IMG/VR virus record: IMGVR_UViG_3300036715_004341
Location: 1-60,257 of that record
Direction: 5' to 3' (one strand)
Length of the DNA: 60,257 nt
Origin: a virus
Lineage: Duplodnaviria; Caudoviricetes
The notes beneath the pieces were generated by a model that saw only the letters and a list, made by a program, of their open reading frames with translations, did no database searches and was not told the DNA's origin. The translations under genes and the position numbers were made by a program. Shown here piece after piece: positions 26 to 51,348 of this stretch. Position 1 is the first letter of the stretch; each line of letters begins with the position of its first letter.

Positions 26-472
26 ATGCCCGACCACGATGTCCCCCTCCCCGTGGTCCTGCCCGACTCCTCCTGGGTCACCCGATCCTCCCCCGGCTCC
101 GTCGTCACCGTCGTCTCGACCAGCGACGACATGGTCACCTTCACGACCGAGCTGGGCGCCCCGAGGAACACGATGCCTCGGCAGGACTTCCAGCAACTCC
201 ATCTCCCCCGCCTGCCCCCCGACGGCCCCCCGGTGCGCGGTCGCCCCTTCCCCGCCCCCGGCGAGGAATGGACCCACCAGGGCTCCCTCTACCGCATCCT
301 GGAGGTCGTCGGGGTCACCCGCCGCGAGGTCCGCTTCCGCCTCATCTACCAGGACCGCTCCCTCCCGAACCCCCTGCCCGTCGAGATCCTCCCCCTCACC
401 CAGTTCCTGGCCGACGAACGCTGGGCCCTCCGCATCACCCGGAGCGTTTACGACCACCTGCTCGACGACTGA
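26..472 (+). CDS. hypothetical protein with C-terminal TAYDLL-like tag (SVYDHLLDD)
   Basis: 148-aa ORF with protein-like composition; ends RSVYDHLLDD*. Confidence 0.75.
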   Translation: MPDHDVPLPVVLPDSSWVTRSSPGSVVTVVSTSDDMVTFTTELGAPRNTMPRQDFQQLHLPRLPPDGPPVRGRPFPAPGEEWTHQGSLYRILEVVGVTRREVRFRLIYQDRSLPNPLPVEILPLTQFLADERWALRITRSVYDHLLDD

Positions 473-492
473 GCTAGAAGGACCCACCCCCC

Positions 493-666
493 ATGGACCT
501 CTTCCATCGCATCTTCTGGCCCCTGGTCGCCCTCGGCCAGTTCCTCGCCGCCGCCTACCTCTACCGCTACGGCGTCATGGCCACCGTCCTCTTCGGCCTC
601 CTCGGTATCGGCTGCCTGGTCTTCACCTGGCACGACGGGAAACCCCGGCCCGTCACCCCCCCGTGA
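493..666 (+). CDS. small membrane protein (57 aa)
   Basis: MDLFHRIFWPLVALGQFLAAAYLYRYGVMATVLFGLLGIGCLVFTWHDGKPRPVTPP*; two hydrophobic segments. Confidence 0.6.
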   Translation: MDLFHRIFWPLVALGQFLAAAYLYRYGVMATVLFGLLGIGCLVFTWHDGKPRPVTPP

Positions 667-905
667 GCGCCACGTAGCAGGCCCGGGGCCCGTCGTGGAT
701 CTGCTGCGTCACCAGGTTCACTCGGGCCCCGAGCCGACCCCGCTCCCCGCTCCCCGAAGTCCCGGAGGATGCCCGACAGCTCACCCCCCTTCCCGAGGAC
801 CCTCCCCCTCCCCCTCCCCCGCGCCCGGTCCAGCTCCTACGGCGTCCGAGCCGCCTTCATCTCCGACTCGGCCCGCTTCATCATCGCCTCGATCCGCCCG
901 TCCAT
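653..905 (-). pseudogene. interrupted ORF resembling the N-terminal coiled-coil arm of PheRS alpha subunit
   Basis: MDGRIEAMMKRAESEMKAARTP*ELDRAR...VLGKGGELSGILRDFG; in-frame TAG at 837-839 and a 1-nt shift near 725; resembles the LGKKGELTxLLKxLG motif. Confidence 0.4.
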
Positions 906-1131
906 CTCCGTCGGTGCTTCCCTCGCCCTCCCCTACCCCTCCGCCCTCGCCCCGTCCACCCGTGAAGGACGACACCAGGTCGAAGCGAGGACGGAACCGC
1001 GAGGGTGGAGAGAGACAGCGCTCCTCCCGGAGCTGCTCCCGGGTCTTTCGCCCCGAGGCCAGGTCGTCCTCGTCCCTCGCTCTCGACTCCCGCTTCTCCC
1101 GCGCCCGCTGCTCCGACAGGGTCTCGCTCAT
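781..1131 (-). CDS. hypothetical protein (true 3' end probably earlier)
   Basis: MSETLSEQRAREKRESRARDEDDLASGRKTREQLREE; ATG overlaps upstream TGA. Confidence 0.45.
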   Translation of the reverse strand: MSETLSEQRAREKRESRARDEDDLASGRKTREQLREERCLSPPSRFRPRFDLVSSFTGGRGEGGGVGEGEGSTDGDGRADRGDDEAGRVGDEGGSDAVGAGPGAGEGEGEGPREGG

Positions 1132-1650
1132 TCCTTCTCGTCTTCCTCGGCCGCCTTGATCGCCGCGACCCTCTTGCCGAGGAGCTTGTGGATCTTCTCC
1201 CAGTCCTCCCGGTGAACCATCGCCGTCTCCATGAAGATCGGGTAGCCATTGACCGACCGCGGGAGCGCCGCGCTCATCGGAGAGGAAAAGCCCCCCACCT
1301 GTTCAACCTCCTACGGAAGCCACCCGTCGAAGACCCCGAAGCCGCGCGGCAAAAAGACCAGGGTCAGCATCTTCGGGTCCCGCACCTGCGTCGAAGGGTA
1401 GAGGTCCCCCGTCAAGATCCCCTGGGCCACCTCCCGGATCTTCTCCTTCGAGATCCGGCCCACCTCCCGGTTCGGCGTCCCCTGCGCCGCCCTCCAGGCC
1501 CGCGTCACCTCCCACTGGGCCTCCCGTGCCTCCCGCTCCGCCTTCGGGTCGAGAGGCAAGTCCTCTCTCCTCCGGTCGCACTCACACGGGCTGTGCAGGC
1601 ACGCCCCACACGAGGGCCACTCATCCGTCTTCGTCTCCGCCGGGTTCGAT
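1128..1650 (-). CDS. hypothetical phage protein interrupted by in-frame TAG at 1311-1313
   Basis: Frame continues through the stop: ...FDGWLP*EVEQVGGFSSPMSAALPRSVNGYPIFMETAMVHREDWEKIHKLL...EKE*; start uncertain, GGTGTAG motif at 1662-1669. Confidence 0.55.
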
Positions 1651-2208
1651 AGGGTCCTCGCCTACACCGGCCGCCAACGGCTCAGGCTTCGGCCTCTTCC
1701 GCCCCGGCAGGAAGGTCAGGCCCAGGGCCGGGTCCAGCCCCTCGGCGCACCGGGTCCGCTGCACCAGGCTGAGGAGCAGGCCCACCTCCCACCTCATCCG
1801 CCGCGTGTCCACCGCCGGCTGGAGCGCCCGCCGCACCTTCCAGCTCGCCGTCGGCACCACGACCTTCACCTGCTGCCCCGTCCACTCCGCCAGCCCCCAC
1901 CCCTCCGGCACCTCCGAAGGCGGGACGAGCCCCCTCGGCGTCAAGTACCACCGCTCCTGCCCCATCGCGTACTCCGCCCCCTCCCCCCGGTGCGCCTTGT
2001 GACGGTCCGCCAGGAAGTCCGCCCGCGAGACCTTCACCTCGACCATCACCGACCAGCCGTCCGCCCGCCATCCGAGGGCGTCCGGGTGCTCGCTCGTCTT
2101 CCATGACCGCGGCTCGACCCCCACCACCACGCACCGGTGCCCCCTCCGCAGCCACTTCCCCCCGATCACACACAGCTCCCGGTGACTCACGCCCTGCTCG
2201 TCGCTCAT
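1621..2208 (-). CDS. PD-(D/E)xK nuclease-like protein (MmcB-like)
   Basis: PDALGW...VEVKVSRADFLADRHK...RWYLTPRGLV..SEVPEGWGL motif pattern. Confidence 0.7.
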   Translation of the reverse strand: MSDEQGVSHRELCVIGGKWLRRGHRCVVVGVEPRSWKTSEHPDALGWRADGWSVMVEVKVSRADFLADRHKAHRGEGAEYAMGQERWYLTPRGLVPPSEVPEGWGLAEWTGQQVKVVVPTASWKVRRALQPAVDTRRMRWEVGLLLSLVQRTRCAEGLDPALGLTFLPGRKRPKPEPLAAGVGEDPIEPGGDEDG

Positions 2209-2908
2209 ACCCCGCCCGAGTTATCGGCGTTTCACCGGAAAATGTCGCCGGGCGACCTTTTGTGCGCCCCCCTGACCCCCAGGGTTTCGCCCTTTTGGGC
2301 CCGGAAGTCCGCCGGGCCAGAAAATGCGAGCCCCACGCCCCTTCCCGGCCCTTCGATCAGGGGGGTGGGGGTGCCCTTTTCCCCGCATTTCGGCCCCCCT
2401 CACGATCAGTTTCCATGCGCCAACTGAATACGCCCCCTACCAGGGTCCCCCCTACCCGCAAAACATAGCCAAGCGGTTCTGGACTTTCTCGCGCAGGGCC
2501 CAGGGGGCCAGGGTCACCCCCGAGGGAGCGGTTCTCGGGTTTGCAGGCAGGGCGACAGGGAGGGGGCAAGGAGGCCCTGGGGTCCCCCCACGGAGACCAG
2601 GGCGCATCACCCCTCATCAGGCTCACCTTGACCCCGCCGAATCCTCGCACGGGCCCCCTCCTTCAGCCCGGGGGGCAGGAAAGAGGGGGCCACTTCCGCG
2701 CAACTCACACGGGCCCTACGCATGGCCAGGGTAGGGGTGAGTGTAGGGGGGCCGGGGCTCGATCCAGGCGCATGAGGGGCCCACGAGACCGGCGCGGGCT
2801 CCTGTCTGGCCTCCGTAGGGCCCAGCACCCCCGCATAGACAGATCACCTGGCCCCTGCGGGGCCAGTGGATGGGTCAGGTGCGGGGTGCCTCCCCTGCTC
2901 TGGGGGCC

Positions 2909-2953
<45 letters not shown>

Positions 2954-2979
2954 TGGGGGCGGGTGGGGTGCCAGGGGGC

Positions 2980-3141
2980 CTACTCGGGGTCAGGGGGGCC
3001 CCCTGGGGAGAGGGCGAGGAGGGCATGGCGGAGGAAGGTCCAGGCGAGGAGGACGGCGAGGGGGAGGGAGCCGTGGCCCCAGGCCCAGACGAGGGCCATG
3101 GCGAGGAGGTAGGCGGCGAGGATGCCCAGGAGGGGGGCCAT
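2980..3141 (-). CDS. small membrane protein
   Basis: MAPLLGILAAYLLAMALVWAWGHGSLPLAVLLAWTFLRHALLALSPGGPPDPE*. Confidence 0.55.
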   Translation of the reverse strand: MAPLLGILAAYLLAMALVWAWGHGSLPLAVLLAWTFLRHALLALSPGGPPDPE

Positions 3142-3142
3142 G

Positions 3143-4255
3143 TCAGTCTCCGAGGAGGAGGGCGTAGGCGGCGGGGGGCTGGTCGGGGATGTACTTGGGG
3201 GTGGGGGGCCTGGGCGCGGGGTCGGGGCGGAGGAGGCGCTGGTGGACGGAGGGGGCGGGGAGGGGTGCCCCGTCCTTGGCCTGCGGGTTCTCGTAGGTGT
3301 CGACGACGCCTTCCTCCTTGGCCATGAGGGTGAGGGGGGCGGTCTGGCAGACGGCAGCGAGGATGCCGGTGACGCGGTGTCGGAGGCGGGTTCCTCGTCG
3401 CCACTCGTGGGGGCCGTCTTGGGGGCGGGGCGTGGGGCGGAGTTCTCGGGGGTCAGGGCGACGAAGTAGGGGGAGGGTCCGACCTTGCTGTGTTCGGAGG
3501 GGGCAGGGGAGGGCGCGGGGCGGTCCAAGGCCATGAGTTCGGCGAGGCCGCCCTGGAGGGGGAGGGGTTCGGACTCACCGCGTTCGAGGTAGCGGGCCAT
3601 GTCGTAGACGGCGCCGGGGGAGAGATTCACGTCCCGGCCGACGCGCTGGCAGAGGGCCTGGCAGATGCGGAGGGCGTAGAGGCGGAGGGCGACCGTAGGG
3701 AGGTAGACCTTGTCCTCGGTTCGATTGGCCCGATGGAGCCGGTCGAGGTGGCGGAGGGCCTCGGCCATGAGGCGGCGGATGAAGAGGGGCAGGGACAGGG
3801 TGGTCTGACCGAGCCGCTGCACGAAGGAGTCGCCGAGGAGGGGCATCCGTTCGCGTATTCCCTGGGCCCGGTTGGCGTAGACCTCGGGGGGAAGGGCATA
3901 GAAGTCCAGGATGGCCGCGAGGGTGTGGGAGGCGGGCTCCCTGGCGCCGGAGAGGAGCTTGTCGGCGACGAGGACCTGGGGGCTGGGGGAGACGCCGAGC
4001 CTCCATGTCCTCGTGGGCGACGACGCGGGCGGCGAGCTGGAGGAGGGGGGAGTCGGGGACGGGCTGCCTGGGGGAAGGTCGCCAGAGGCCCTGGCGACGG
4101 AGGCACTGGGCTGCCGATCGGCAGAGGGTGTGGAGGGCTTCAGGGAAGGGCCTTGACCGGGAGCGGTAGCGGGCCCGGAAGAGGGTTTGGAGGGCGTCCC
4201 TGTCCCGATCGACGATGGGGTCGTGGAAGGTCTCGTAGGGGGCAACGTGGGGCAT
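3143..4255 (-). CDS. hypothetical protein, frameshifted; C-terminal tag AAYALLLGD
   Basis: ATG 4255 (MPHVAPYETF) 8 nt after GGTGTAG; protein-like sequence switches frames (HTLAAILDFYALPPEVY..., then MAKEEGVVDTY...PAAYALLLGD*). Confidence 0.5.
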
Positions 4256-8577: not shown

Positions 8578-9144
8578 TCACGGGTCGTCTCTCGTCAACA
8601 GCTCGTAGGCGGTGGTCGCGGGGGACAGGGCCTGGCGTGATCGTGCCCTCATGGCCGTCCAGAAAGCCCGGACTTCGGCCGCTTCCTCCGTACTCAGCTC
8701 CCCTCGCAGGGTGAACTTGACCAGGCACTTGCCCGTGATCTCCCCGGGGTTGAGGTGCATCGTGACGCCGGGCACCGCCGGTTTCGGGAAGCGGGCGGCC
8801 ACGGCAAGGAACGGGGCCTTTGCTTCCAGACGCTTGGCCTCTTCCGTCGCCAGGCGTGGGGTCGTTTCCCACGCCTTGTGGACCGCGGTCTTCAGGAGCT
8901 TCGCGGACTGCCGGCGCCCCTCCCCCCATTTCGGGAGGGGGATCTCGTCAAGGTGCGCGGCCCTGGGGGCACTGCTCTGAAAGAAGCGCACTTTCCCGTT
9001 GTCGACCTTGACGTTGACCTCCCGGCCGCAGACCTCGACCGTGACGGTCCGGTACGGGGCGCCCTCGGGCATGGGTCCGGGGTCGGGGTAGCCGCCGGCC
9101 ACGGCGGCCTTGCGGAGTCGCCCCCACGTTGCTTCGTAGCTCAC
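8578..9144 (-). CDS. hypothetical protein with C-terminal tag TAYELLTRDDP
   Basis: GTG overlapping the upstream TGA; ends PATTAYELLTRDDP*. Confidence 0.7.
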   Translation of the reverse strand: MSYEATWGRLRKAAVAGGYPDPGPMPEGAPYRTVTVEVCGREVNVKVDNGKVRFFQSSAPRAAHLDEIPLPKWGEGRRQSAKLLKTAVHKAWETTPRLATEEAKRLEAKAPFLAVAARFPKPAVPGVTMHLNPGEITGKCLVKFTLRGELSTEEAAEVRAFWTAMRARSRQALSPATTAYELLTRDDP

Positions 9145-9608: not shown

Positions 9609-10385
9609 ATGACCTTCGACGAGCACAGTCAGTGGTTCGCGGCCGGCCACGAGGGGTTCAAGCACGACCTCTCCGGGTACTCGACCTCCAGCCCCATCCG
9701 GCAGCACCCCTTCTACCGGGAGGTCGTGGCCCGGGGCGCGTGCATGACCCCCACGCTCGGCCTGATGGTGGCGGGGGGCGCGCACCCGTGGATGTCGGCC
9801 CTGCGCACCATCCTCGGCGCCGGACCCCTGTTTGTCCCGGAGGAGCGCGGCGTGATGCCCCTGGTCACGGCCGGGTGGTGGCGCTGGCTCCGGGCCGAGG
9901 GGCACCTGCGGGGCCTGAGGCTCGGGGCCTTCGACCTTGACGCCCCCTACACCGGCGCACCCGTCACGGACCTGCCCTCCCTCATCTACAACGGCCGGTG
10001 GTTCGTCGAGGATGACCACCAGGACATCCCCCCGGAGCACCCGGCCCTCTCCCTCCTCACCGCGGAGGCGCACCTGCGGGCCTACGTCCGGCGACAGGCG
10101 TGGGCTTACACGGGTTACGGCGGGGGGACGTGGTCCCTCGCGCTGCCCTTCGAGTACCGGCTCTCCTGCGTCACCGAAGCCATGGCCCGGGGTGGCTTCC
10201 GCCACACGCCTCCGGTGCTCTGGGAGGGCGTGGAATACGGACTCCCCGAGGGGGTAGGGATCATCGAGCGCACGGCCCCGTGGGGGAGTCTGTACCGGAG
10301 GCACCTGCTCTACCCCGAGCGGATCTGCATCTTCGTCCCGCCCGCCCGGACCGCCTACGATCACCTGAACGGGGGGGCCCCGTGA
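9609..10385 (+). CDS. hypothetical protein, paralog A; C-terminal tag TAYDHLNGGAP
   Basis: 258 aa; shares blocks with the next gene. Confidence 0.75.
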   Translation: MTFDEHSQWFAAGHEGFKHDLSGYSTSSPIRQHPFYREVVARGACMTPTLGLMVAGGAHPWMSALRTILGAGPLFVPEERGVMPLVTAGWWRWLRAEGHLRGLRLGAFDLDAPYTGAPVTDLPSLIYNGRWFVEDDHQDIPPEHPALSLLTAEAHLRAYVRRQAWAYTGYGGGTWSLALPFEYRLSCVTEAMARGGFRHTPPVLWEGVEYGLPEGVGIIERTAPWGSLYRRHLLYPERICIFVPPARTAYDHLNGGAP

Positions 10386-11101
10386 ACGACCCCCTCACCC
10401 TCTGGTCCTGGTTCAGCCACGGGCTCCGTATCTACACGGCGGCCACGGCGGGTCAGCAGTACGCCGCCGACCGGATCTACCACCCCTTCATCCAGGCGTG
10501 CCGGGACCGCCTCCCCGCCACCCTGCCCCTCATGACCCTCGCGCTCCTCGACGGGGACCCCGCCTGGGCCCTCGTGCTGGGCGACGTGACGGACCCCCCG
10601 CCGGACGTCCAGGCCCGGGGCGGGTACGCCCACCGCCAGGCGTGGTGGGACTGGGCCCGCCGGCTCGAGGGATGGATGGGGGGCCTCGCGCTGTCCGCCT
10701 TCGACCTCGTGGAGATCTTCCCCCCCAAGACCCTTCCGTACGCCGGCTTCCACGGCAATGGGTGGCGGACCGCCCCCGAGCGGGGGTCCACCGTCTCGAC
10801 CCCCTTTGCGCTCGTCGAGCAAGCCCTCCGCTCCTTCCTGCTCCGGGTCGCCGCCGAGAAGGGCACCCTCCGGCGCTCCTTCGAGAACGGTGAGGAGGCG
10901 GCGGAGGCAGCCCTGGGCCCCGTGGAACCCGGGCAGCGGGTCGTGCGGACCCTGGAGGGGTACTTCGTGCTCCCCGAGAGCTTCGGGGTGATCTGCGAGC
11001 GGGGCGTCGGGCACAGCTTCGACGTGCTGCTCCTCAACGACTTCCGGGCCATCGAGTACCGCTGGCTCACGGCCTACGATCTCATCTCCGAGGACCCGTG
11101 A
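10382..11101 (+). CDS. hypothetical protein, paralog B; C-terminal tag TAYDLISEDP
   Basis: GTGA coupling; WWDW..LEG..GLALSAFDL matches WWRWL.AEG..GLRLGAFDL upstream. Confidence 0.75.
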   Translation: MNDPLTLWSWFSHGLRIYTAATAGQQYAADRIYHPFIQACRDRLPATLPLMTLALLDGDPAWALVLGDVTDPPPDVQARGGYAHRQAWWDWARRLEGWMGGLALSAFDLVEIFPPKTLPYAGFHGNGWRTAPERGSTVSTPFALVEQALRSFLLRVAAEKGTLRRSFENGEEAAEAALGPVEPGQRVVRTLEGYFVLPESFGVICERGVGHSFDVLLLNDFRAIEYRWLTAYDLISEDP

Positions 11102-11532
11102 TCATCTACCGCTACCAGGAAGTGCTCATGTACCCTCCCGGGGCGACGGTCCCCTACGACTTCTCCCCGGCCACGGAGAGCTGGTCGCTCGTCTTCCTGG
11201 AGGTGCAACCCGCGGACAGCTTCACGGAGTGCTGGCGACGGCACGAGAACCCGTCGGAGGAGATCGTCTTCATGGAAGCCCAGGGGAACCTTGCCACGGC
11301 CCACAAGCGCTGGCACGAACTCCACCAACAGGTCCAGTACCTCTTCGGGCAACGGAGCGAGGTCCTGGTCTTCTTCACGCTCCTCGCCCTCAACGGGACC
11401 GAGATCTACCTCGGGGGCCTGGTCGCCTGGGGCCCCGTGACGCACTTCGGGGAGGAGACAGGGCCCGCGTGGTGGGGCACCCCCTTCACCCCTCCCGTCT
11501 ACCCCACCGCCTACGATTTCCTGCTCCGCTGA
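11098..11532 (+). CDS. hypothetical protein with C-terminal tag TAYDFLLR
   Basis: 144 aa, coupled to the upstream stop. Confidence 0.7.
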   Translation: MIIYRYQEVLMYPPGATVPYDFSPATESWSLVFLEVQPADSFTECWRRHENPSEEIVFMEAQGNLATAHKRWHELHQQVQYLFGQRSEVLVFFTLLALNGTEIYLGGLVAWGPVTHFGEETGPAWWGTPFTPPVYPTAYDFLLR

Positions 11533-13126: not shown

Positions 13127-13471
13127 CTACTCCCCGGGGAAGTACCGCTCGATGGCGAGGGTCATGGCAATGCGCCCCACGGGGTTCATGGAGTGGACCT
13201 GGGGCTTCTCGGTCGGCCACTTCCCGTGCTCGGCCATCCACAGAACGAAGTCGTAGCCGTTCTTGACGTGCCGGCAGCCCCGGGCCTGGTCGTCGTTCTC
13301 GGCCCGCTTCACGCACGGCTCGCAGGCCCCGAGGTCGTGATCGAGGCTTGCCTCTTCCCACAAGGCACTTCGCTCGACGAGGGCGATGGCCTCCTCGACC
13401 GTCTTCACCCACGTCCACCCCTCCAGGCCCCGGTGCAGGGGGTTTCGCTCGTCGTCCAGCCACAGCTTCAT
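13127..13471 (-). CDS. cyclic-phosphate-processing receiver-domain protein
   Basis: MKLWLDDER.P, SLDHDLG, GYDFVLW, VHSMNPVG signature. Confidence 0.8.
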   Translation of the reverse strand: MKLWLDDERNPLHRGLEGWTWVKTVEEAIALVERSALWEEASLDHDLGACEPCVKRAENDDQARGCRHVKNGYDFVLWMAEHGKWPTEKPQVHSMNPVGRIAMTLAIERYFPGE

Positions 13472-14001
13472 GTTTCCAGTATCCTGTCGTAGAGGGTTGC
13501 AGACCAGGGTTCTTCGCGGAGGGCGTAGGTGCCTTCGGGGAGAGTGAAGACGAACCCGAAGTGGCCGAGGGACCCGAGGATGCGGTCCATCACCTCCCCG
13601 GGGATGGGCTTCGGCTCGTTCGTGCGCTCCTCCCACCCGTCGGCCAGGGCCTCCAGGGCGGCGGGGTACGGGGGGCCGTTCAGCCAGAGCAGCATGTGGA
13701 CGAGCGTGGTCGCATGGATGTCGTCCCAGAACTCCCGGCTGTCCTCGGCCGTCTTCTCGTAGTCCACGCACAGGATTTCCAGGCACAGTGTCCGCACGAA
13801 GTCCCCCTTCGTGGGCCCGTCGTCGGCCCCGGCCCGCCAGACCAGGTCGAGGAGGGGGCTGAGATCCGCCGCGTAGTCCCGGGCGATCCCGAGGACCCGC
13901 TTCTCGAACTCGCTCGCCCGGGTCGGCTCCTCGGGGGCCTAGGACAGGTAGACCGCCCAGAGGGCTTTGGCCTCCAGGTAGGTCAGGAGGGGGATGCTCA
14001 C
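13468..14001 (-). CDS. hypothetical protein, in-frame TAG at 13939-13941; C-terminal tag TLYDRILET
   Basis: GTG 14001 coupled to the upstream stop; frame is open on both sides of YLS*APEEP. Confidence 0.6.
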
Positions 14002-14282: not shown

Positions 14283-14672
14283 CTACACCGTGAGCAGATC
14301 GTAGATCGTGCGCCGATGGTGGGGGGCGGCCTCGCGGCTCGTGCCGTAGAGCTTCCGCCAGGGCTTCGGGACGGCCGCTTTACCCTCGAAGGGCTCCCCG
14401 ATGAGGAAGGGGAAGACCCGCAAGACATCCCGCCCGTCCTCCTCGAAGGGATACCAGCCGAGGTTGAGGACCATCGTCCCGGCCTGGGGCAAGGCCCGCA
14501 TCGCCTCGATGCGCCCTTCCCTCCACCCGGCCGTACCCATGAGGGAGTGGACCCGGTAGCCTTCCTTGAGGGGGGCGAGGACGCATTCCTTCTCGTCCGT
14601 CCACTTCACCATGTAGCCCGGCTCGGGCATGATGAACTCCCCTCGGGAGACGAGCCACCAGGCGTACCTCAT
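14283..14672 (-). CDS. hypothetical protein with C-terminal tag TIYDLLTV
   Basis: MRYAWWLVSRG...RRTIYDLLTV*. Confidence 0.7.
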   Translation of the reverse strand: MRYAWWLVSRGEFIMPEPGYMVKWTDEKECVLAPLKEGYRVHSLMGTAGWREGRIEAMRALPQAGTMVLNLGWYPFEEDGRDVLRVFPFLIGEPFEGKAAVPKPWRKLYGTSREAAPHHRRTIYDLLTV

Positions 14673-14682: not shown

Positions 14683-15147
14683 TTACCCCAGGCGGAGCAG
14701 GTCGTAGGCCGTTCGCTCGCGAGACCCCACCTGGAGGCCCCCCTTGACCCAGGGCGGCGGGAAGGTCTGCTTGAGCTTCTCGGGCAGGTCCCCGGGGCAG
14801 ACCGTGGCCCCTTCCTCCCCGAAGGCCGCCCAGAAGCGCACCTTGCGGCCCGGCTCGATCCGGCTCCACCCCAGGTGCAAGGACCCCGATCCCGGGGGCC
14901 AGGGCACCTCGTCGAAGAGCCTCTTGACCCATTCGAGGACACGCTTGCGGGAGAGGGGCGTGATCACCATGACCGCCAGCCCCTTCTTGCAGCGTCGGAT
15001 CTTGTAGGTGTCCTTCCCCGTCGGGATGACCAGCCACACCATGCCCTCGCTGCGCAGGGTAATCGGTCCCCCCTCCCGCACCGCGTGGTCCATCTCCCCG
15101 TACCAGTAGATCTCCATGTCCCTCGCGGCCGAGCAGGAGATCTTCAC
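14683..15147 (-). CDS. hypothetical protein with C-terminal tag TAYDLLRLG
   Basis: GTG coupled to the upstream TGA. Confidence 0.7.
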   Translation of the reverse strand: MKISCSAARDMEIYWYGEMDHAVREGGPITLRSEGMVWLVIPTGKDTYKIRRCKKGLAVMVITPLSRKRVLEWVKRLFDEVPWPPGSGSLHLGWSRIEPGRKVRFWAAFGEEGATVCPGDLPEKLKQTFPPPWVKGGLQVGSRERTAYDLLRLG

Positions 15148-15401
15148 CCGATCTGGTCGTAGACCGTGGGCCCCATGCCGTCGCGCGGGCCGCTCGGCTG
15201 CCCGAGGAACTCGGCCCACTCCGGTCTCGCCCCCAGCCCTCGCTCGACCTCCCAGACGAGCTTCGCGTCTCCGTACACGGTCTGCCATCCGATGTTCCGG
15301 GTCGCTCGGAACTGCGTCCAGACGATGAGGGTCCGGTCCCGCTCCCGCCGTTCAAGGGCGGCCCGGATGCCCCGGAGGGCTTCCCTTGTCCCGAGGGCCA
15401 C
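15144..15401 (-). CDS. hypothetical protein with C-terminal tag TVYDQIG
   Basis: 85-aa ORF. Confidence 0.65.
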   Translation of the reverse strand: MALGTREALRGIRAALERRERDRTLIVWTQFRATRNIGWQTVYGDAKLVWEVERGLGARPEWAEFLGQPSGPRDGMGPTVYDQIG

Positions 15402-15467: not shown

Positions 15468-15938
<471 letters not shown>

Positions 15939-15955: not shown

Positions 15956-16465
15956 TCAGCCAAGCAGGTCGTAGGCGGTCATCACCGGCAGAAGGGGGAA
16001 GGGCTCCCCGCCCTCCCAGGTCGCGTCGAGGAGGGTGCAGGCGACCCCCGCCCCGGGGTTACGGATCCGGCTCCCGATCCGCAGGTCCCCCGGCCAGACC
16101 AGCGCCCCGTCCTCGTCCCTGGTGGGCGTCCACGGGTAGGTTCCCAGGGCAAAGGCGGCCACCTTGGGGTCCCGGGTGTTGGTCGGGCCCTCGCAGTGCA
16201 GGGTGATGGCGAAGAAGGTGCTGGGAGTCCAGGGGAGGACCTCTCGTAGCTCGGGCAGCCGCAGGTTGGCGAGCCGTGACCACCGGTCGTCGTCCCGCAG
16301 GTAGCGGAGGTCGACCCCGGGCCCCTTCTCCTCGCAGACCGCGCAGGTGAAGAAGAGCCCGTCGATCGGGTCGGCGTGCAAGGTGATCGGGCTCTTGTGC
16401 AGCGGGACCCGGGCGTGCCGGAGGCAGTGAGCCCGCGCTTCGGCCAGCCACCGGGCGAACCTCAC
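15956..16465 (-). CDS. hypothetical Cys-containing protein with C-terminal tag TAYDLLG
   Basis: GTG coupled to the helicase stop; CAVC; ends VMTAYDLLG*. Confidence 0.7.
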   Translation of the reverse strand: MRFARWLAEARAHCLRHARVPLHKSPITLHADPIDGLFFTCAVCEEKGPGVDLRYLRDDDRWSRLANLRLPELREVLPWTPSTFFAITLHCEGPTNTRDPKVAAFALGTYPWTPTRDEDGALVWPGDLRIGSRIRNPGAGVACTLLDATWEGGEPFPLLPVMTAYDLLG

Positions 16466-24206: not shown

Positions 24207-24662
24207 CTACACCGCGATCCAGTAGAGCCCCGCGATGGTCCCCGAGGTCGGGGAAAAGGTGATGCTGGCGGGTCCCTGGCGGAAGGCCGTGGTGATCGGG
24301 CATCCCGTGCCCTCCGGGTAGCGGTAGGTGATGCCCTGGGGGTTCGCGCTCGACGTCACCCCCGCGTCGTGGCGGCAGCGGGCACAGCGAATGACGGTCC
24401 GGGCGACCCCATGGCGGATGCTGTAGCGCCCCCTCTTGAAGCAGTCCTGCTTCTCGCACGCCCAGACCTCTGTGCAGTCCATCTGGTCGCAGACGTGCTC
24501 GTGCCCCGCCTGGCCCCCTTCCTCGAGGAGGCGCTCGTAGACGGTGGGGATGCTCGGGGAGAGCCACGACCCGAAGTCGAGCTTCTCGGCCGGCCTGGGG
24601 TCGTAGCCCCGCGTCTCCCGTTGCAGCAGGGCCCAGTCCTCCTCCAGCTCCCCGGGCGTCAT
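24207..24662 (-). CDS. Cys-rich hypothetical protein with internal TVYERLL motif
   Basis: HVC...C...C...C, CARC; ends in GTG TAG. Confidence 0.6.
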   Translation of the reverse strand: MTPGELEEDWALLQRETRGYDPRPAEKLDFGSWLSPSIPTVYERLLEEGGQAGHEHVCDQMDCTEVWACEKQDCFKRGRYSIRHGVARTVIRCARCRHDAGVTSSANPQGITYRYPEGTGCPITTAFRQGPASITFSPTSGTIAGLYWIAV

Positions 24663-24886
24663 GGCGCGCACTCCTCGAACCGGAGGGGGAGCTGCTCTTC
24701 GGACACGGTGAACACGAGGGGCTCGGGCATGGGCTTTTCACAATCGGGGCAGGGGGCATGGGCGCCCGTGTCGGCCTGGTCGCTGAGGTCTGGCTCGATC
24801 GTGCAGTGCCACGCGCAGTCCCACATCCCGTAGCAGAGGGGGCAGGCATGGAGAGGCAGGCCGAGGAGGACCTCGTAAGCGCTCAT
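24659..24886 (-). CDS. small Zn-finger protein
   Basis: CPLC..CAWHC...CPDC; begins MSAYEVLLG. Confidence 0.55.
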   Translation of the reverse strand: MSAYEVLLGLPLHACPLCYGMWDCAWHCTIEPDLSDQADTGAHAPCPDCEKPMPEPLVFTVSEEQLPLRFEECAP

Positions 24887-26446: not shown

Positions 26447-26795
26447 GGAGGTCATGGCCTGGTGCAAGCGGTCCGACTGCAAGCAGCTCACGGAGACCCC
26501 GGAGGGGGGCAACATCTGGCAGGACGCAAAGAAGGGGGACCTTGTCGTCATCTGGGAGGGCCCTCGGGACGATGTCCGGGCCTTCGTGCGCGACATCGTG
26601 CGGTACAAGATCACCGTTGGCCCTCCGTACGCTGCGATGGTCACAATGCTCACGGCCTTGCGCGGGGAGTTCAAGGTCGGGGGCTTCCTCACGACGGACC
26701 CGAAGTACGGCCGGGAGCTGCCGGCCGCGCCTCCCGCATGGTTCCCCTCGGGCCACGGCTTTCCGATTACCGTGTACGACCACCTCTTGGTGTAG
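26445..26795 (+). CDS. hypothetical protein with C-terminal tag TVYDHLLV
   Basis: 116 aa. Confidence 0.7.
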   Translation: MEVMAWCKRSDCKQLTETPEGGNIWQDAKKGDLVVIWEGPRDDVRAFVRDIVRYKITVGPPYAAMVTMLTALRGEFKVGGFLTTDPKYGRELPAAPPAWFPSGHGFPITVYDHLLV

Positions 26796-27919: not shown

Positions 27920-28366
27920 ATGCCCCTTTTCGTGCGTTCTACGACCCTCCCTGACCTCGCGCGCCCCGTCTTCGACATCTCGAACCTCGGGCCGGGCCTG
28001 TGCGTCTGGAGGGACCGCCAGTGGCCCAGGTTCGAGTACCGGTCGGCCCTGGAGGTCCCCATGATGACCCACGACCCCTCGGACGTGGATGACGTCGTCA
28101 CCATGATGTGGGAAGCGACGGCGGGCCTGGCGGACGTCCAGTCGCCCGACCTGAACCTGATGGTCGTCGTCTTCCAGGTGCTCAGCACGAACGACATCGC
28201 CCTCGGGGGCTTTCTGACGTGGGCCCAGGAGCCGGAGACTGTGGGGGACCCCTTGCCCGAGTGGCTGCGGACGGGTTTGCGTTCCCGGCCCCGGGCGCGG
28301 TCGGCCCCTCTGGTGCCCATCACCGCGGGTAACACGACGGCCTACGACCTGCTCCTCGGGGGTTGA
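27920..28366 (+). CDS. hypothetical protein with C-terminal tag TAYDLLLGG
   Basis: ATG 12 nt after CGGTGTAG. Confidence 0.75.
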   Translation: MPLFVRSTTLPDLARPVFDISNLGPGLCVWRDRQWPRFEYRSALEVPMMTHDPSDVDDVVTMMWEATAGLADVQSPDLNLMVVVFQVLSTNDIALGGFLTWAQEPETVGDPLPEWLRTGLRSRPRARSAPLVPITAGNTTAYDLLLGG

Positions 28367-28462: not shown

Positions 28463-28783
28463 GTGGAAAACATCCGTGTCCGGCGCATCGGCGATCAGGT
28501 CTTTGTGGAGCCCGACAGCAAGCGCTGGCAGCTCGTCAACGACGCCAAGGGCTACCCCCACCTGTACCTGCAAGTGCTGGTGGAGGATGACGACGGCCAG
28601 ATGGTCAAGGGCTACTTCTGCCTCGACCACATGCTCGACGTGACGATCAAGGAACTCATGGAGGAGGGCAACTTCGGGGGGAAGCTCTCCCCCGAGGAGG
28701 AGCAGGAGGCCCTGGCGGAGTTCCTGGCGGACCCGAACCGTCCGCCCTGCCCCCACTACGACTCGTCCAAGATGCGGTCGTAG
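28463..28783 (+). CDS. hypothetical protein
   Basis: 106-aa ORF with protein-like composition. Confidence 0.65.
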   Translation: MENIRVRRIGDQVFVEPDSKRWQLVNDAKGYPHLYLQVLVEDDDGQMVKGYFCLDHMLDVTIKELMEEGNFGGKLSPEEEQEALAEFLADPNRPPCPHYDSSKMRS

Positions 28784-28971
28784 GCCGTCGGCTCAGGCTC
28801 GGGGTTGACCGGCTCGGGAGCGGGGGGCAGGTGGGGGATGACGATCGGCTTCGGGTACGCCGCCCGGGGGTCGAGGGAGGACCGGGGAGGGGCGGGGCGC
28901 GTGGGGCCCAGGGAGGCGGCTTCGAGCCGCTTCAGTGAGGAGACCATGTCGAGAAAGGCGCTGTTGCTCAT
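28756..28971 (-). CDS. small Pro-rich protein with C-terminal tag TAYDRILDES
   Basis: MSNSAFLDMVSS...PEPEPTAYDRILDES*; frame is open back to 29469. Confidence 0.55.
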   Translation of the reverse strand: MSNSAFLDMVSSLKRLEAASLGPTRPAPPRSSLDPRAAYPKPIVIPHLPPAPEPVNPEPEPTAYDRILDES

Positions 28972-31000: not shown

Positions 31001-31546
31001 ATGTACCTGAACCTCACCACCCAGATCCCTCTCTTCGTCCCCACCCTCTGCTCCCACAGCCTCGTCATCCGCACGGCGGCTCGGTTGACCCAGGGCGAGC
31101 CCCTCCTGGGCATGGGTCATCTGCGGGGTGGGGAAGACCTCCGGCTCCTCCCCCCCTCGGCGTCGAAGAAGACCTCGGACAGCATGGTCTACGAGACCTT
31201 CCTGCCCCTCTCGGGCATCCGCCGGGGAGGGTGCCTCGTGTGCTTCGGGTCCGGGTGTCGGCAGTGCCCCCCGGAGATCCGCATGGCCAGGCCCTGGAGG
31301 GTTCACACCCTGGTCCGCAAGGCCGCGGAGCTGCTCGTGCCGGTGCAGATGGAAGTCAGGGTGCAGCGGCCCGGCGGAGACGGCGTGTACCTCGCCACGG
31401 TGGTGGACGTGGGGCAGGAGGTCGACATCGCCGCCACCCTGTTCCGTCTCGACACCTTGAGCCCGCTGGCATCGGATGTGCTTCCCCTGCATCAGAGCAA
31501 GGAACCCTGCCGCCCCGATGTCTACGCCCACCTCCTCAACGACTGA
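31001..31546 (+). CDS. hypothetical protein with CxxC pair and C-terminal tag DVYAHLLND
   Basis: CLVCFGSGCRQC; ATG 8 nt after CGGTGTAG. Confidence 0.7.
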   Translation: MYLNLTTQIPLFVPTLCSHSLVIRTAARLTQGEPLLGMGHLRGGEDLRLLPPSASKKTSDSMVYETFLPLSGIRRGGCLVCFGSGCRQCPPEIRMARPWRVHTLVRKAAELLVPVQMEVRVQRPGGDGVYLATVVDVGQEVDIAATLFRLDTLSPLASDVLPLHQSKEPCRPDVYAHLLND

Positions 31547-33070: not shown

Positions 33071-33328
33071 TCATGGGGGAGATTCGGGCATCACCAGGAC
33101 CACGACGCGCGCGATGCCGGCCAGCCCGATGCCCACGACCAGGGCGGCCGTCGGGCTACCCGCGACGAACGTGAACGTGAGGGCCGAGACCGCGGTTCGT
33201 TCCGCGGTCCACCTGCCCTTGCCGTACGTGAGGAAGAGGGCGTCGAGGGGGAGGGGCCCCTCGTCCCGGTCGTCGACCCAGGTCCCTCCGTCGTTCCTGG
33301 ACATGAGCTGGTAGGTCGGCGGGGTCAT
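33071..33328 (-). CDS. hypothetical protein
   Basis: MTPPTYQLMSR..., ATGA coupling. Confidence 0.5.
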   Translation of the reverse strand: MTPPTYQLMSRNDGGTWVDDRDEGPLPLDALFLTYGKGRWTAERTAVSALTFTFVAGSPTAALVVGIGLAGIARVVVLVMPESPP

Positions 33329-33576
33329 GGGGTCTCCAGGATGATCGTGTACGCGCTCGGCTCGACGTGACGGGCCTTGTGCGAGAAGGTCCACTCCTCG
33401 GCCCATTCCTGGCGCGTCAGGGTGAGGTTGTCGAGGCTCCGGCGGATCAGGTGAACCCGGGCCCCCTCGACGGCCACGACCCGCCCCCGCCGGGTGACCT
33501 CCCGGGAGACCCTGAAGATGTCCTCGGGGTCATCCCGGTGCCGGTCGATTTACTCGGGGGAGTAGCGGACCCTCAC
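33325..33576 (-). CDS. hypothetical protein with in-frame TAA at 33550-33552; C-terminal tag SAYTIILETP
   Basis: VRVRYSPE*IDRHRDDPEDIFRVSREV...HVEPSAYTIILETP*; not in the ORF track. Confidence 0.55.
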
Positions 33577-39580: not shown

Positions 39581-39953
39581 CGCGAGCAACAGCAACAACG
39601 TCATCGTCACGGTCACGCTCCTTTCGGACGAGGCGGTCAGCACCCTCATCCGCCTGCTGGTCGAGTCGGCCTACACGGTCAAGGCGGGCTTCGGGTACAA
39701 CACCATCCTCGCGGGCCCGGTCGGGGACTGGTGCGGCCGGGTGGTCTGCCTCCGGGTGGAGAAGGAGGGCAGCCGGGGCATGGCCGACGAGTTCAAGGCG
39801 GACTTCGTGAAGGCAACCGAGCGGATCAACTACCTCTCGGCCGTCATCATCGGCTACAACGCGAGCGTCGCCGTCCTGTGCCCTCACCTGGTCGACGGAA
39901 AGGAGAAGGCCCCGGGGTCCGTCTACGACGCCGTGAACGACGAAGAGAAGTAG
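39580..39953 (+). CDS. paralog 3 of tandem triplet; SVYDAVNDEEK tag (start damaged)
   Basis: LIRLLVESAYTVKAG, NYLSAVI. Confidence 0.6.
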
Positions 39954-40283: not shown

Positions 40284-40604
40284 ATGCCCGATGGAGCCCC
40301 CTACGTGTTCGAGGCCACCCGCGCAACCTGGGTCATCACCGCCGCCGATGAGGGCGTCCTGCAAGGGATGTCCCGTCGCTTCCGCGATGATCCCCACGTC
40401 GACAAGGTCGAGCGCCTCCACCGCGGCCCTGACCTCTTCCTCCGGGTGACCTTCAAGAACGGCTACGGGGCGCCCCTCCGCCCCGAGCTGGGCGTGCTCC
40501 GGCACGCGGGCGGGGAACTCGTCGTCGAGCCCAGCCAGGCAGGGCGCAAGGGCAGGAAGGGTGGTATCCCCCGGACGGCCTACGACCTCATCGGGATGGA
40601 CTGA
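40284..40604 (+). CDS. hypothetical protein with C-terminal tag TAYDLIGMD
   Basis: AGGAG upstream of ATG. Confidence 0.7.
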   Translation: MPDGAPYVFEATRATWVITAADEGVLQGMSRRFRDDPHVDKVERLHRGPDLFLRVTFKNGYGAPLRPELGVLRHAGGELVVEPSQAGRKGRKGGIPRTAYDLIGMD

Positions 40605-40626: not shown

Positions 40627-40911
40627 ATGCCCTCTCCCCGCCTTTTCATCCGCCACCTCCCCTTCACCACCGCCGCCGATCGCGCACGGGTCATGCACAT
40701 CTACGCCCTGGCCGAGCTGGACCCGAGCGTGGACGAGGTCCGCATGGCAGAGAGCGCCCAAACCCTCCTGGCGACGTTCGAGGTCCGGCCGCATCAGGGC
40801 GCTGTCTGGCCGGCGCACCCCGACCTGGTGGCCCTCGTCGCCCCCTTGACAAACCCGGACGCCTGGCCTGCCGAACCCGAGGGGCCCACGGTCTACGAAA
40901 TGCTCCTCTGA
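40627..40911 (+). CDS. hypothetical protein with C-terminal tag TVYEMLL
   Basis: MPSPRLFIRHLPF...EPEGPTVYEMLL*. Confidence 0.7.
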   Translation: MPSPRLFIRHLPFTTAADRARVMHIYALAELDPSVDEVRMAESAQTLLATFEVRPHQGAVWPAHPDLVALVAPLTNPDAWPAEPEGPTVYEMLL

Positions 40912-44512: not shown

Positions 44513-44929
44513 CTACCCGAGGATGATGTCGTAGGCGCTCTTCGGGGCGCCTGGTTCCGTTTCCTCCTCGACGCGGACGCTGAGGGGGCGCCAGGGGGAC
44601 TGGGGGCGGAGGGTGCGCCAGTCGGGGAAGGTGACCCGCTCGTAGTCGAGCCCCTCGGTCGGCCAGTAGACGTAGTCGGCGCGGGCGATGTCTCCGGGGT
44701 CGAGGTCCTGGGCCGCGTGGAACAAGACCCAGGCGATCTTGCCGACCTTGACGAAGCAGGGGTTGTTGACGCCCGGCTTCGTGGTCCCGCCCTTGTCCCC
44801 CACGGCCCGGACATACCGGGCCGCCATCTTCTCGGCCCTCTTCTTGTCGGCCGCCAGGAAGATCACGCACTTCCCCTCGACCACGACGTCGCGGAGTAGC
44901 TCTTCGAGGAGTCCGGGTCCGGCTCGCAT
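44513..44929 (-). CDS. hypothetical protein with C-terminal tag SAYDIILG
   Basis: 138 aa. Confidence 0.7.
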   Translation of the reverse strand: MRAGPGLLEELLRDVVVEGKCVIFLAADKKRAEKMAARYVRAVGDKGGTTKPGVNNPCFVKVGKIAWVLFHAAQDLDPGDIARADYVYWPTEGLDYERVTFPDWRTLRPQSPWRPLSVRVEEETEPGAPKSAYDIILG

Positions 44930-45736: not shown

Positions 45737-46418
45737 ACGGGTCGTCGTCCGAGGACCCCTGGCTCGCGTTCAGGTGGTCGTAGGCGGTCTTGGCGGACAG
45801 GGGGGTGGGGGTCGGCCGGGGGGACGGGCAGACGCGGGCTGGGGGCCCGTCTCCGTGCGGATCGTGGTCCGGGCCAGCTCTCGGATCTCGGCCGTGGTGC
45901 GAACCACCTCGTAGTCGTTGCAGAGGGTACGGGGGGCGAAGGGCACCCGCACCGGTGGACGGCCCACCCGGAAGCGGGCGCGGTCACCGCCCACGGGCCC
46001 GCGGGGCATGTCGACGTCCCCCATGTCGAACTCCACCGCGAAGCCGCGCGGGGCCCTGGCCCCCTCGCCGTCCAGGTCGAAGTCGAAGGAGGCCCTGTCC
46101 GCCTGCTGGGGACGTCCCCGGTCGATGCCTGGGGTGGAGGTCGGGCGGAGGGCCCCGGACCGCAGGGCCCTCCGCCCGCATCTCCTGGGCGCCGGCCGGC
46201 GAGAGGAAGAGGCCCGGTTCGAGGTCCGGTGTCCCCTTGCGGGCCTGGGGGACCTGGGAGGCTGTGCGGATGCTGCCCGAGGCTACCTTGGTCGGCAGGG
46301 CAGGGCTCTCGGCCATGAGGCGGTAGTAGGGCCCGTCAGGGCACGCGCACCCCCCTTGGCCCGCTTCGCGGTAGATGACCTTGTGGCACGAGCCACAGGT
46401 GGCCAGGGGGGTCGCCAT
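45729..46418 (-). CDS. hypothetical protein, two frameshifts; TAYDHLN tag near the C-terminus
   Basis: MATPLATCGSC...CAC; FDFDLDG...FDMGDVD; final frame LSAKTAYDHLNASQGSSDDDPFS*. Confidence 0.5.
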
Positions 46419-46479
46419 ACCTCGTACTTTAGAGGGAAGATGCTCGGGGGCAACGGCACGTCCTGGTGTAAGAGGCCCC

Positions 46480-49636: not shown

Positions 49637-49662
49637 AGCGCACTTTTAGGAAGATCCTTGGT

Positions 49663-50424
49663 ATGGCTCCCTCCCTCCCCCCGCAGGCGGGCCCCGCCCG
49701 CGAGTCCTCCATCCTGGATCTCATCGCCCAGGGCGGCGCCCAGATCACCTGGGCTGACCTGCCCTCCTCGGCCGGCGGGCACACCGCGATCTTCCGCGTG
49801 TTCGCCGACGCCCTCATGATCGACGGGCTCCGGGTCAACCTCTCGGCCGCGGGTGAGCAGAAGGCGGCCGACCTCCTCGGCTGTTCCCTCCTCACGCCCA
49901 AGCTCGCCGATCTCATCTGGCAGCACCGGGCGGTCACCCTGGCCCCCCACCCCTTCCCGATCGACACCACGACGGCTCTCATGGTCCGGCACTCCCAGGT
50001 CCTCGATGCCGACCTCGCCCGGCAGGGGAACCCCCTCGGCCTCATCAGCACCGTGGGCAAACACTGGGTCATCGCCAACGGCATCCCCCAGGGCCGCGCC
50101 ATGAACTACGGCTGGCACGTAGCCCCCGGGGGCTACGCCGGTCCGACCGAGGTCGTCGCCTCGCTCTACAAGGACAAGAACGGCCAGTACGGGCGGCTCA
50201 TCCAGGGCTGCGGCACCCGGCACGACTCGTCCCACGCCGACTACAGCCAGACCGTCGTCCTGGTCAGCCAGGACTGCGTGGTCGACGGGCAGCCGGCGAA
50301 GCTCTCGGACGTCCTCCAGAGCCCCGAACTGGCCGCCCTCGCGTCGCACCAGGGGCCCCTCACGATCCTCCGCCAGCCCGGGGTCCCGGAGACGCCCGTG
50401 GTCCCCGTCTACACCCTCCTGTGA
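49663..50424 (+). CDS. conserved hypothetical protein; C-terminal PVYTLL
   Basis: LLTPKLADLIW, GKHWV, NYGWH, IQGCGTRHD..HADYSQ. Confidence 0.7.
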   Translation: MAPSLPPQAGPARESSILDLIAQGGAQITWADLPSSAGGHTAIFRVFADALMIDGLRVNLSAAGEQKAADLLGCSLLTPKLADLIWQHRAVTLAPHPFPIDTTTALMVRHSQVLDADLARQGNPLGLISTVGKHWVIANGIPQGRAMNYGWHVAPGGYAGPTEVVASLYKDKNGQYGRLIQGCGTRHDSSHADYSQTVVLVSQDCVVDGQPAKLSDVLQSPELAALASHQGPLTILRQPGVPETPVVPVYTLL

Positions 50425-50448
50425 GGCACTTATCGTGGCCCGGGGGGT

Positions 50449-50682
50449 ATGCAACTCGGGACCCTCCTCGACGCCGTCCGGGCGATCAGCCCCCATGCCC
50501 AGGTGCATTTTCTCCCGGTGCCGTACCGGGATGACATCTGGGTCCTGCGCGTCATCGTGGGGAGCGTAGTCATCGTCGAGACAGCCGCCGGCCCCCTCGA
50601 TGAGATTGGCCAGGCCGCCGGGCAGAAGCTCCGGTCGATGAGCCGCCGGATGCTGGCCGTGGTCAAGGAGCAGGAGGACTGA
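50449..50682 (+). CDS. hypothetical protein
   Basis: 77 aa. Confidence 0.65.
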   Translation: MQLGTLLDAVRAISPHAQVHFLPVPYRDDIWVLRVIVGSVVIVETAAGPLDEIGQAAGQKLRSMSRRMLAVVKEQED

Positions 50683-50703
50683 TCCTGGTGTAGAAGGGGC
50701 CCC

Positions 50704-51348
50704 ATGGGCCGCATCCTCGCCTGGGTTGACGGGGCCGCCGGGCACATCCTCCCCTTCACCGCTCGCCTGCTTCACGGTATCGAAGGGCTCTCTCGGGGGC
50801 AGGCCCTGACGCTCACGGTCCTCCTCCCCGTCCCCCTCGCCCTTCTGCTCCTCTGGTGGCGGGACTGGGCCCTCCAGAAGCAAGTGCTCTGGGTCCTCGA
50901 CCAGAAGCTCTCGTATCAGGTGGGGCAGGAGTACCGGGAGATGGAGCGGCGCAACATGGTCGCGGTCGGGGAGGTGGAAGCCCGCCTCCTCGGCTTGCAG
51001 GAGCGCGTGCAGACCCTGTCGGAACAGACGGAGCGGGACATGCAGGCGTCGTTTCTGGCTGTCCGGGACGACATCCTTCTGGGCCGTTTCCCGGTGCAGA
51101 TCCTTGTGCGGTCGAATGACGACAGGGAGGCCCTCGCCGCGCTCCTGTCGTCGTCCGTTACCCAGGTGCTCCGCGAGACCTATGCGAGGTACAGGGTGGC
51201 CGAGCCGGAGAGGGCTGGCCGTATCCCGGTCGCCAACGCCTACGCGCTCGTCCTCGACGACGAACCCACCATCGAACCCGAACCCGAACAGGAAGAACCA
51301 TGCCCCCCGAAGACCCGCAAACGCAGCACGAAGCGCAAGACGACCTGA
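50704..51348 (+). CDS. membrane-anchored coiled-coil protein with NAYALVLDD motif
   Basis: TM segment LTVLLPVPLALLLLWW; ATG 10 nt after TGGTGTAG. Confidence 0.65.
   Translation: MGRILAWVDGAAGHILPFTARLLHGIEGLSRGQALTLTVLLPVPLALLLLWWRDWALQKQVLWVLDQKLSYQVGQEYREMERRNMVAVGEVEARLLGLQERVQTLSEQTERDMQASFLAVRDDILLGRFPVQILVRSNDDREALAALLSSSVTQVLRETYARYRVAEPERAGRIPVANAYALVLDDEPTIEPEPEQEEPCPPKTRKRSTKRKTT

Follow-up and report, generated by a model that had tools for sequence, protein, structure and literature searches.

A shared C-terminal peptide on about one fifth of the proteins of a huge-phage contig: a candidate docking or targeting signal

Most of what is known of huge phages comes from metagenomes, and the majority of their genes have yet to be given a function. 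The virus contig IMGVR_UViG_3300036715_004341, of which the whole 60,257-base record was analysed here and is referred to below as the window, raises the question of why about one fifth of its proteins, otherwise unrelated, end in the same six-to-seven-residue peptide, typified by TAYDLL. We report that this peptide, which we call the tag, is real, strongly non-random, C-terminal and selected as a peptide, and that it is conserved, with residues that vary in concert, across a clade of huge phages. Its role is probably that of some signal for docking or targeting which the carriers share. The window is 70% G+C, has neither a terminal repeat nor tRNA genes and has an estimated completeness of 31%; 92 genes were called on its two strands, covering about 80% of it, with a crude codon-bias caller of our own and no standard program.

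A sequence-only reading of this DNA had listed about 28 copies of the tag. All of them are present, and in a position-weight scan of the six frames every stop coordinate of the 21 terminal copies is reproduced exactly, while the seven internal or near-terminal copies are found at 15662, 24545, 24883, 45788, 39126, 39553 and 51235; the total is better restated as 19 strong and two weak terminal copies with a few internal ones (Table 1). The scan returned 28 matches of at least 9 bits, 21 of them with -1 to 4 residues between the 7-mer and the stop, and all 21 terminal copies lie in a reading frame with a positive coding score. They occur on both strands, as had been described, with 11 on the plus and 10 on the minus strand. 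The strict pattern [TS][AVIL]Y[DE].[LI] has 20 six-frame matches, of which 16 fall no more than 11 codons from a stop.

Chance does not account for this. The strict pattern occurs in the last 15 residues of 16 of the 92 called proteins, against a mean of 0.01 and a maximum of 1 in 1000 within-protein shuffles, and a looser pattern occurs in 21 against 0.43 in shuffles, one of these matches (VYTPLR of the gene 15468-15938) being judged to be chance. The first 15 residues of the called proteins hold one match, and not one of 674 uncalled or off-frame ends of open reading frames (ORFs) carries the strict pattern. The tag is thus strongly enriched at C-termini over both the shuffled and the off-frame controls that the sequence-only reading had proposed as its check.

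This enrichment, together with the variation of the codons, supports the earlier claim that the tag is a linear motif under selection at the level of the protein. Thr is encoded by ACC in 6 cases and ACG in 8, Asp by GAC in 11 and GAT in 4 and Ser by AGC in 3 and TCC in 1; the fifth codon of the tag is free, its spacing to the stop varies and the DNA past the stop shows no conservation. Pairwise synonymous identity is at or below the expectation from genome codon usage for Thr, Asp, Val and Leu, and Ala alone lies above it (GCC 10, GCG 1). In the tags of the related phages described below, Ser is drawn from both AGY and TCN codons and Arg from both CGN and AGR. A repeat or boundary element at the DNA level is rejected on these data.

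The proteins that carry the tag have little else in common. With their tails trimmed, an all-against-all BLASTP comparison of the 92 proteins leaves one weak pair of carriers, the products of 9609-10385 and 10382-11101 (29% identity, E = 2e-4), and hidden paralogy among the carriers is thereby rejected; a homologue search with the second of these returned itself alone. None of 20 carriers belongs to a Pfam or a PHROG family. Among the 60 window proteins taken into the Pfam scan, 0 of 20 tagged and 10 of 40 untagged proteins scored above the Pfam cut-off (Fisher p = 0.011), in agreement with the suggestion that the recognisable enzymes lack the tag. The carriers are also soluble, with a transmembrane-like segment in 0 of 20 compared with 13 of 72 other proteins. 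Pro makes up 17.9% of the 12 residues upstream of the tag, compared with 7.6% of the proteome, and 25 of the 37 residues that follow the tag are D, E, G or P.

Two relatives of the window were reached in IMG/VR via its LigT-peptidase protein, namely G001 (363,484 bp, 53% G+C, 76% complete) and G002 (435,218 bp, 65% G+C, complete, with direct terminal repeats), which have 12 and 23 proteins, respectively, in common with the window (E < 1e-4). The capsid protein of G002 matches PDB entry 6wkk, 'Gp27 major capsid protein', with E = 1e-59; we take this entry to be that of Bacillus phage G and, because of this match, regard the window as part of a huge phage similar to phage G. Between G001 (96778-97650) and G002 (215185-216063) the capsid protein is 94% identical despite a 12-point gap in G+C, while the other shared proteins of the two that were compared are mostly about 40-70% identical. 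Partial paralogues of the major capsid protein are found at 43233-43589 of G002, 284201-284407 of G001 and 29841-30992 of the window. That of G002, within the tagged ORF 42960-43859, is 46% identical to capsid residues 12-139 and ends SRFDRVLEMAA; that of the window shares just 33% identity with the relatives' capsid protein.

As the sequence-only reading had proposed checking, variants of the tag are carried by relatives: by these two huge phages and by a wider protein family. The pattern [TS]RY[DE].[LI] has six six-frame matches in G001, all six at ORF ends, and ORFs ending in [TS][RAVIL][YF][DE].[LIV] plus at most 8 residues number 10 in G001 and 24 in G002. The form preferred by the relatives is [ST]-R-[FY]-[DE]-x-[LIV], as in the terminal peptides SRFDRI, TRFERV and SRFDRLGEDL. 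Tails of this kind are found on 22 of the 595 called proteins of G002, against 0.40 in shuffles. None of 20 tagged proteins of the relatives scores above the Pfam cut-off.

A single window gene, 15468-15938, links the tag to the wider family. It encodes an 82-residue domain, a run of about 11 Thr residues, the peptide TAYDLIM and then 57 more residues, an extension that may reflect a lost stop codon or a gene fusion. Its orthologue in G002 ends TLFDRVLREEP at the corresponding point, the place of the tag being kept and the sequence differing. Searched against 1.84 billion representative proteins, a profile of the 82-residue domain has 450 homologues, and 16 among the best 150 of these 450 end in x[WYF][DE]x[LIVM], where the rate in the protein bodies predicts about 3.2 and shuffling of the tails gives 5.3, with a maximum of 13 over 1000 shuffles. 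This family has versions of the form [ST]-A-W-[DE]-x-L, typically P-T-A-W-[DE]-[RH]-L followed by an acidic tail, and Trp is the commonest aromatic residue.

Other searches for tagged genomes were negative. LR745208, of 485 kb and with a capsid protein 83% identical, shows no tag enrichment, either in a 43-kb part of it or over the whole record, which has 13 tail matches where 11.5 are expected. The window's 1250-residue methyltransferase-helicase has no match in IMG/VR, and two metagenome contigs with a methyltransferase-helicase of about 41% identity carry no tag. When IMG/VR was scanned with the DNA form in which the tag most often occurs, 106 loci were returned, each with one match; three of these matches precede a stop, and no locus has two or more tail-type matches.

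What, then, might the tag do? It can be pictured as a short linear peptide of about six to seven residues at the end of a Pro-rich flexible linker on about 20 soluble, unrelated orphan proteins. The Ser/Thr and the acidic residue three positions on would make up the N-capping box of a short helix. On one side of this helix, the invariant aromatic residue would line up with the aliphatic residues at +3 and +4 as a hydrophobic face, and this face would fit a groove in one receptor common to all carriers. Preferences at these positions vary among the phages, being A/V-Y..LL in the window, R-F/Y-D/E-R/K-L/I/V in the two relatives and A/L-W in others; from this we infer a receptor that co-evolves with the tag and is encoded by the phage, rather than a highly conserved hub of the host. 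Our tentative reading is that the tag docks or targets its carriers by way of a receptor encoded by the phage, which is quite possible and less secure than a docking or targeting role of some kind.

The candidates for such a receptor that we can name are AAA+ ATPases, and these are known from the genomes of the relatives alone. PF00004 AAA matches number seven in G001 and seven in G002, and the combined set includes one ClpX in each genome as well as proteins of about 400 residues. A model of one of the latter (predicted local distance difference test score, pLDDT, 81) has Bcs1 and Bacillus subtilis YjoB as its best PDB matches, over about 390-410 aligned columns. In G001 and G002 together, three of the five Bcs1-like genes have a strictly tagged immediate neighbour, where the figure for all genes is 71 of 980 (Fisher p = 0.003); the remaining two have tag-like neighbours, ending DRFSRVG... 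and TRFDLEPPI, and one Bcs1-like gene sits in a same-strand run of the form tag-tag-tag-AAA-tag. In LR745208, the genome that shows no tag enrichment, neither Bcs1-like AAA proteins nor ClpX were found by tblastn. Moving folded proteins into the head has been proposed as the task of BCS1 orthologues in jumbo phages (Iyer et al. 2021, PMC7824862), in a paper whose main text, by term search, has no occurrence of a C-terminal motif. A Bcs1-like AAA+ ATPase is our leading candidate for the receptor, though taken singly it is an unlikely one, and the phage ClpX is the second-choice candidate; PDZ_2 and Lon_C, also considered as receptors, were absent in the family searches. Going one step further, the tag might be a cargo address by which a Bcs1-like AAA+ translocase recognises folded accessory proteins and loads them into the prohead or another phage-built compartment, for delivery with the DNA, a proposal that we consider rather improbable as it stands.

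Several points weigh against this line of argument. The enrichment in G001 is modest (6 of 385 called proteins, against 0.32 in shuffles), and the matches in the bodies of its proteins also exceed the shuffle mean, at 19 against 7.4. No PF00004 AAA gene is present in the window, which is only about 31% of a genome. The association with neighbouring genes was noticed post hoc and from five genes, and the Fisher test is too generous because the tagged and AAA genes both cluster in accessory regions. The co-occurrence argument, from three genomes, suits ClpX and a third AAA type equally well. The helix and its capping box are themselves inferred, the variation of the tag among phages could instead track differences between host orthologues, and the identity of any receptor is putative.

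Among the known sorting signals with which it was compared, the tag fits none. The encapsulin cargo-loading peptide and the capsid-targeting sequence of T4 are short linker-borne peptides that send unrelated proteins into a shell of the HK97 fold. The T4 sequence is N-terminal and cleaved by the prohead protease, whereas 16 tags lie in the last 15 residues and 1 in the first 15. The encapsulin peptide is, like the tag, C-terminal, the tag lying 0 to 4 residues from the end after its Pro-rich linker, but it has a Gly/Ser/Leu-rich consensus and an adjacent shell gene, while the consensus of the tag is aromatic and acidic; no encapsulin family occurs among the 60 window proteins scanned with Pfam. 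We also considered mimicry of a scaffold and rejected it, because in neither G001 nor G002 do the genes directly preceding the capsid gene end in the tag.

Signals of other kinds differ as clearly. Sortase and PEP-CTERM-type signals, in which a transmembrane helix and a basic tail come after the motif, are set apart by the lack of a transmembrane-like segment in all 20 carriers and by the tag lying at most 4 residues from the end. The type VII secretion signal is YxxxD/E, whereas in the tag the acidic residue comes directly after the Tyr, and Leu or Ile occupies position +4. PTS1/Pex5 and Bcs1 both handle proteins that are already folded, and a C-terminal tag on many unrelated proteins recalls the former as the Bcs1-like neighbours of tagged genes recall the latter; PTS1, however, is a terminal tripeptide, which the tag is not, and the link to Bcs1 is one of gene neighbourhood only. 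By inspection the tag resembles the eukaryotic LIR/AIM motif, [WFY]-x-x-[LIV], some examples of which are C-terminal, in its aromatic-x-x-aliphatic core and its acidic or Ser/Thr neighbours; the receptors of that motif are the Atg8 family, which is eukaryotic, and the likeness may be one of generic peptide-groove chemistry. Searches of the literature by peptide string and by concept, which did not extend to supplementary material, found no description of such a tag.

The best surviving of the other explanations is that the tag is a degradation signal or unfoldase tether, through which the phage ClpX(P) or a protease of the host would carry out timed proteolysis of early accessory proteins. A ClpX with a zinc-ribbon N-domain is found in both relatives (G002 103121-104575; G001 215783-218077), G002 encodes in addition a ClpP-family protease, and many of its tagged genes are placed towards the two ends of the genome (0-65 kb and 431-435 kb). 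Early genes often lie near genome ends in other phages, and the tagged genes may likewise be early. SspB, moreover, is built of a globular domain, a flexible linker and a C-terminal ClpX-binding peptide that docks on the AAA+ machine, an architecture to which the tagged proteins would be analogous. The sequence of the SspB peptide is nonetheless unlike the tag, which also differs from ssrA-like and other ClpX degrons in having no defined non-polar extreme C-terminus. It is followed by 0 to 4 residues (up to 8 in the relatives) that are variable and mostly acidic, Gly or Pro, which does not suit a receptor that reads a defined non-polar C-terminus and its free carboxylate. In the relatives ClpX is not encoded beside tagged genes, the window (31% complete) has no ClpX gene, no Lon protease was found and the ClpP-family gene could be a prohead protease. 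We hold a degradation signal to be unlikely, to about the same degree as the Bcs1-like receptor. Apart from this question, the G001 AAA+ genes 215783-218077 (the ClpX) and 286238-289537 have apparent inteins at the Walker A site, by eye.

Somewhat less likely again is that the tag mimics a linear motif of the host and docks on a conserved host hub such as the sliding clamp, RNA polymerase or the N-domain of a chaperone or protease. The carriers do resemble host-takeover orphan proteins, and the sequence-only reading had pointed to the tails by which T4 gp43 and gp55 bind the gp45 clamp. These tails, read from AF158101 as ...ASLDFLFG and ...SLDFLYEAND, are likewise Ser/Thr-initial acidic and hydrophobic hexapeptides, 1 to 4 residues from the C-terminus, on unrelated proteins of one phage. 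The resemblance turns out to be one of architecture only: the acidic residue precedes the aromatic in T4 (S-L-D-F-L-F/Y) and follows it in the tag (S/T-x-Y/F-D/E-x-L), and the T4 tail is borne by three or four replication and transcription proteins, where the tag is borne by about 20 orphans. No carrier is a polymerase or a replication or transcription protein, 0 of 20 having any family assignment. By inspection, none of the 21 tags has the Gln or the terminal Phe of the bacterial beta-clamp-binding motif, QL[SD]LF. The clamp families PF00712, PF02768 and PF09116 have no match in the window, G001 or even the complete G002; a very divergent clamp could escape such a search. The systematic variation of the tag (Y, F or W; A/V or R; x or R/K) would also be less expected for a highly conserved host pocket.

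Weakest of all and extremely improbable is conservation of a nucleic acid (a terminator, promoter, recombination boundary or RNA-protein site) or a recent duplication of a 3' cassette, for which the position of the tags at gene ends and the uniform Ala codon would speak, but against which stand one peptide maintained across genomes of 53%, 65% and 70% G+C and the points given above, namely synonymous sites that otherwise track genome usage, Ser and Arg from unrelated codon families, a free fifth codon, variable stop spacing, no conservation 3' of the stop and off-frame ORF ends without the motif.

Recognition of the tag by a phage-encoded receptor, for docking or targeting, is our preferred, if tentative, reading. 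The features of the window are collected in Table 1. The doubtful member PVYTLL belongs to a gene with homologues in G001 and G002 that have no tag. In three stretches, 2900-4300 (-), 45400-46500 (-) and 38770-39740 (+), the best coding frame switches and no clean gene can be called; they hold the tag-like peptides AAYALLLGD, TAYDHLN, TAHELISEEP and GVYDQV, and assembly indels or real frameshifts here may conceal more tagged genes.

Some neighbouring genes deserve mention in their own right. Between two tagged genes lies 26809-27879 (+), which encodes a protein of 356 residues with no Pfam family. Its homologues in the database exceed 6351, at an identity of about 50%, and many lie on contigs of 150-660 kb. 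Its AlphaFold model is confident (pLDDT 87) and beta-rich and has no Foldseek match in the PDB; its homologue in G002 likewise adjoins a tagged gene, and none was found in G001. It was considered as the receptor and set aside, as nothing ties the protein to the tag. The 175-residue protein of 52447-52974 (-), of unknown family, is about 60% identical across the window, G001 and G002, and occurs in each of the two relatives as three tandem paralogues within the structural module (G001 83.8-85.8 kb, G002 226.8-228.4 kb), which all end ...Q(T/V)S(I/M). Sequence searches of the ESM Atlas and the PDB with 46809-47840, 26809-27879 and 52447-52974 gave nothing useful, and such searches gave a MazG-like hint for 44935-45357. 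The methyltransferase-helicase (16462-20214; G002 10207-14001) resembles DarB, the packaged anti-restriction protein of phage P1, and the gene order of a 277-residue gene, this gene and small tagged genes is kept near the terminus of the complete G002. The phage also encodes a membrane protein of the Bax1-I/YccA family (43770-44480 (+), Pfam E = 3e-44), which adjoins an M15 peptidase lysis gene.

Table 1. Copies of the tag and recognisable products in the window; terminal peptides are followed directly by the stop codon.
Feature	Coordinates	Strand	Gene	Remarks
SVYDHLLDD, terminal	443..472	+		5'-open ORF; 20.9 bits
AAYALLLGD, terminal, weak	3143..3172	-		9.5 bits; coding frame switches in stretch
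TAYELLTRDDP, terminal	8578..8613	-	8578-9144
TAYDHLNGGAP, terminal	10350..10385	+	9609-10385
TAYDLISEDP, terminal	11069..11101	+	10382-11101	weak paralogue of 9609-10385
TAYDFLLR, terminal	11506..11532	+	11098-11532
TLYDRILET, terminal	13468..13497	-	13468-13797
TIYDLLTV, terminal	14283..14309	-	14283-14681
TAYDLLRLG, terminal	14683..14712	-	14683-15147
TVYDQIG, terminal	15144..15167	-	15144-15401
TAYDLIM, internal	15642..15662	-	15468-15938	after poly-Thr linker
TAYDLLG, terminal	15956..15979	-	15956-16465	directly downstream of methyltransferase-helicase gene
TVYERLL, internal	24525..24545	-		105 in-frame residues after it
M-SAYEVLL, N-terminal copy	24863..24883	-	24659-24886
TVYDHLLV, terminal	26769..26795	+	26445-26795
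TAYDLLLGG, terminal	28337..28366	+	27920-28366
TAYDRILDES, terminal	28756..28788	-	28756-29469
DVYAHLLND, terminal, variant	31517..31546	+	31001-31546	14.3 bits
SAYTIILETP, terminal, variant	33325..33357	-	33325-33477	17.2 bits
SVYDAVNDEEK, terminal, variant	39918..39953	+	39741-39953	14.0 bits
TAYDLIGMD, terminal	40575..40604	+	40284-40604
TVYEMLL, terminal	40888..40911	+	40627-40911
SAYDIILG, terminal	44513..44539	-	44513-44929
TAYDHLN, near-terminal	45768..45788	-		12 residues before stop; stretch with frame switches
PVYTLL, terminal, doubtful member	50404..50424	+	49663-50424	9.1 bits, wrong spacing
DUF6094 methyltransferase fused to helicase		-	16462-20214	1250 residues
ADP-ribosylglycohydrolase			22912-23856
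2H/LigT phosphoesterase			47837-49582	weak Acb1-like match
Calcineurin-like phosphoesterase
cREC_REC domain protein
Peptidoglycan-binding lysis-type proteins				two
AAA_33 kinase
dNMP kinase
MazG-like pyrophosphatase
RNase HII

The tag, on about one fifth of the proteins of the window and on tens of proteins in the relatives, groups orphan proteins into one functional class and offers an experimental handle on them, and it can be searched for across metagenomes to predict unknown proteins of the system. Were it a degradation signal or a hub-docking motif, it would show how such phages time or concentrate their accessory proteins. Should it serve for loading or import, it would be the first described case of proteome-wide sorting by a peptide in a phage, and a ready tool for packing foreign proteins into capsids. 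And if it were indeed a cargo address, the tagged proteins would be a pre-made kit for host takeover and counter-defence, and which proteins a whole clade of huge phages injects would be set by a simple hexapeptide that can be transplanted.

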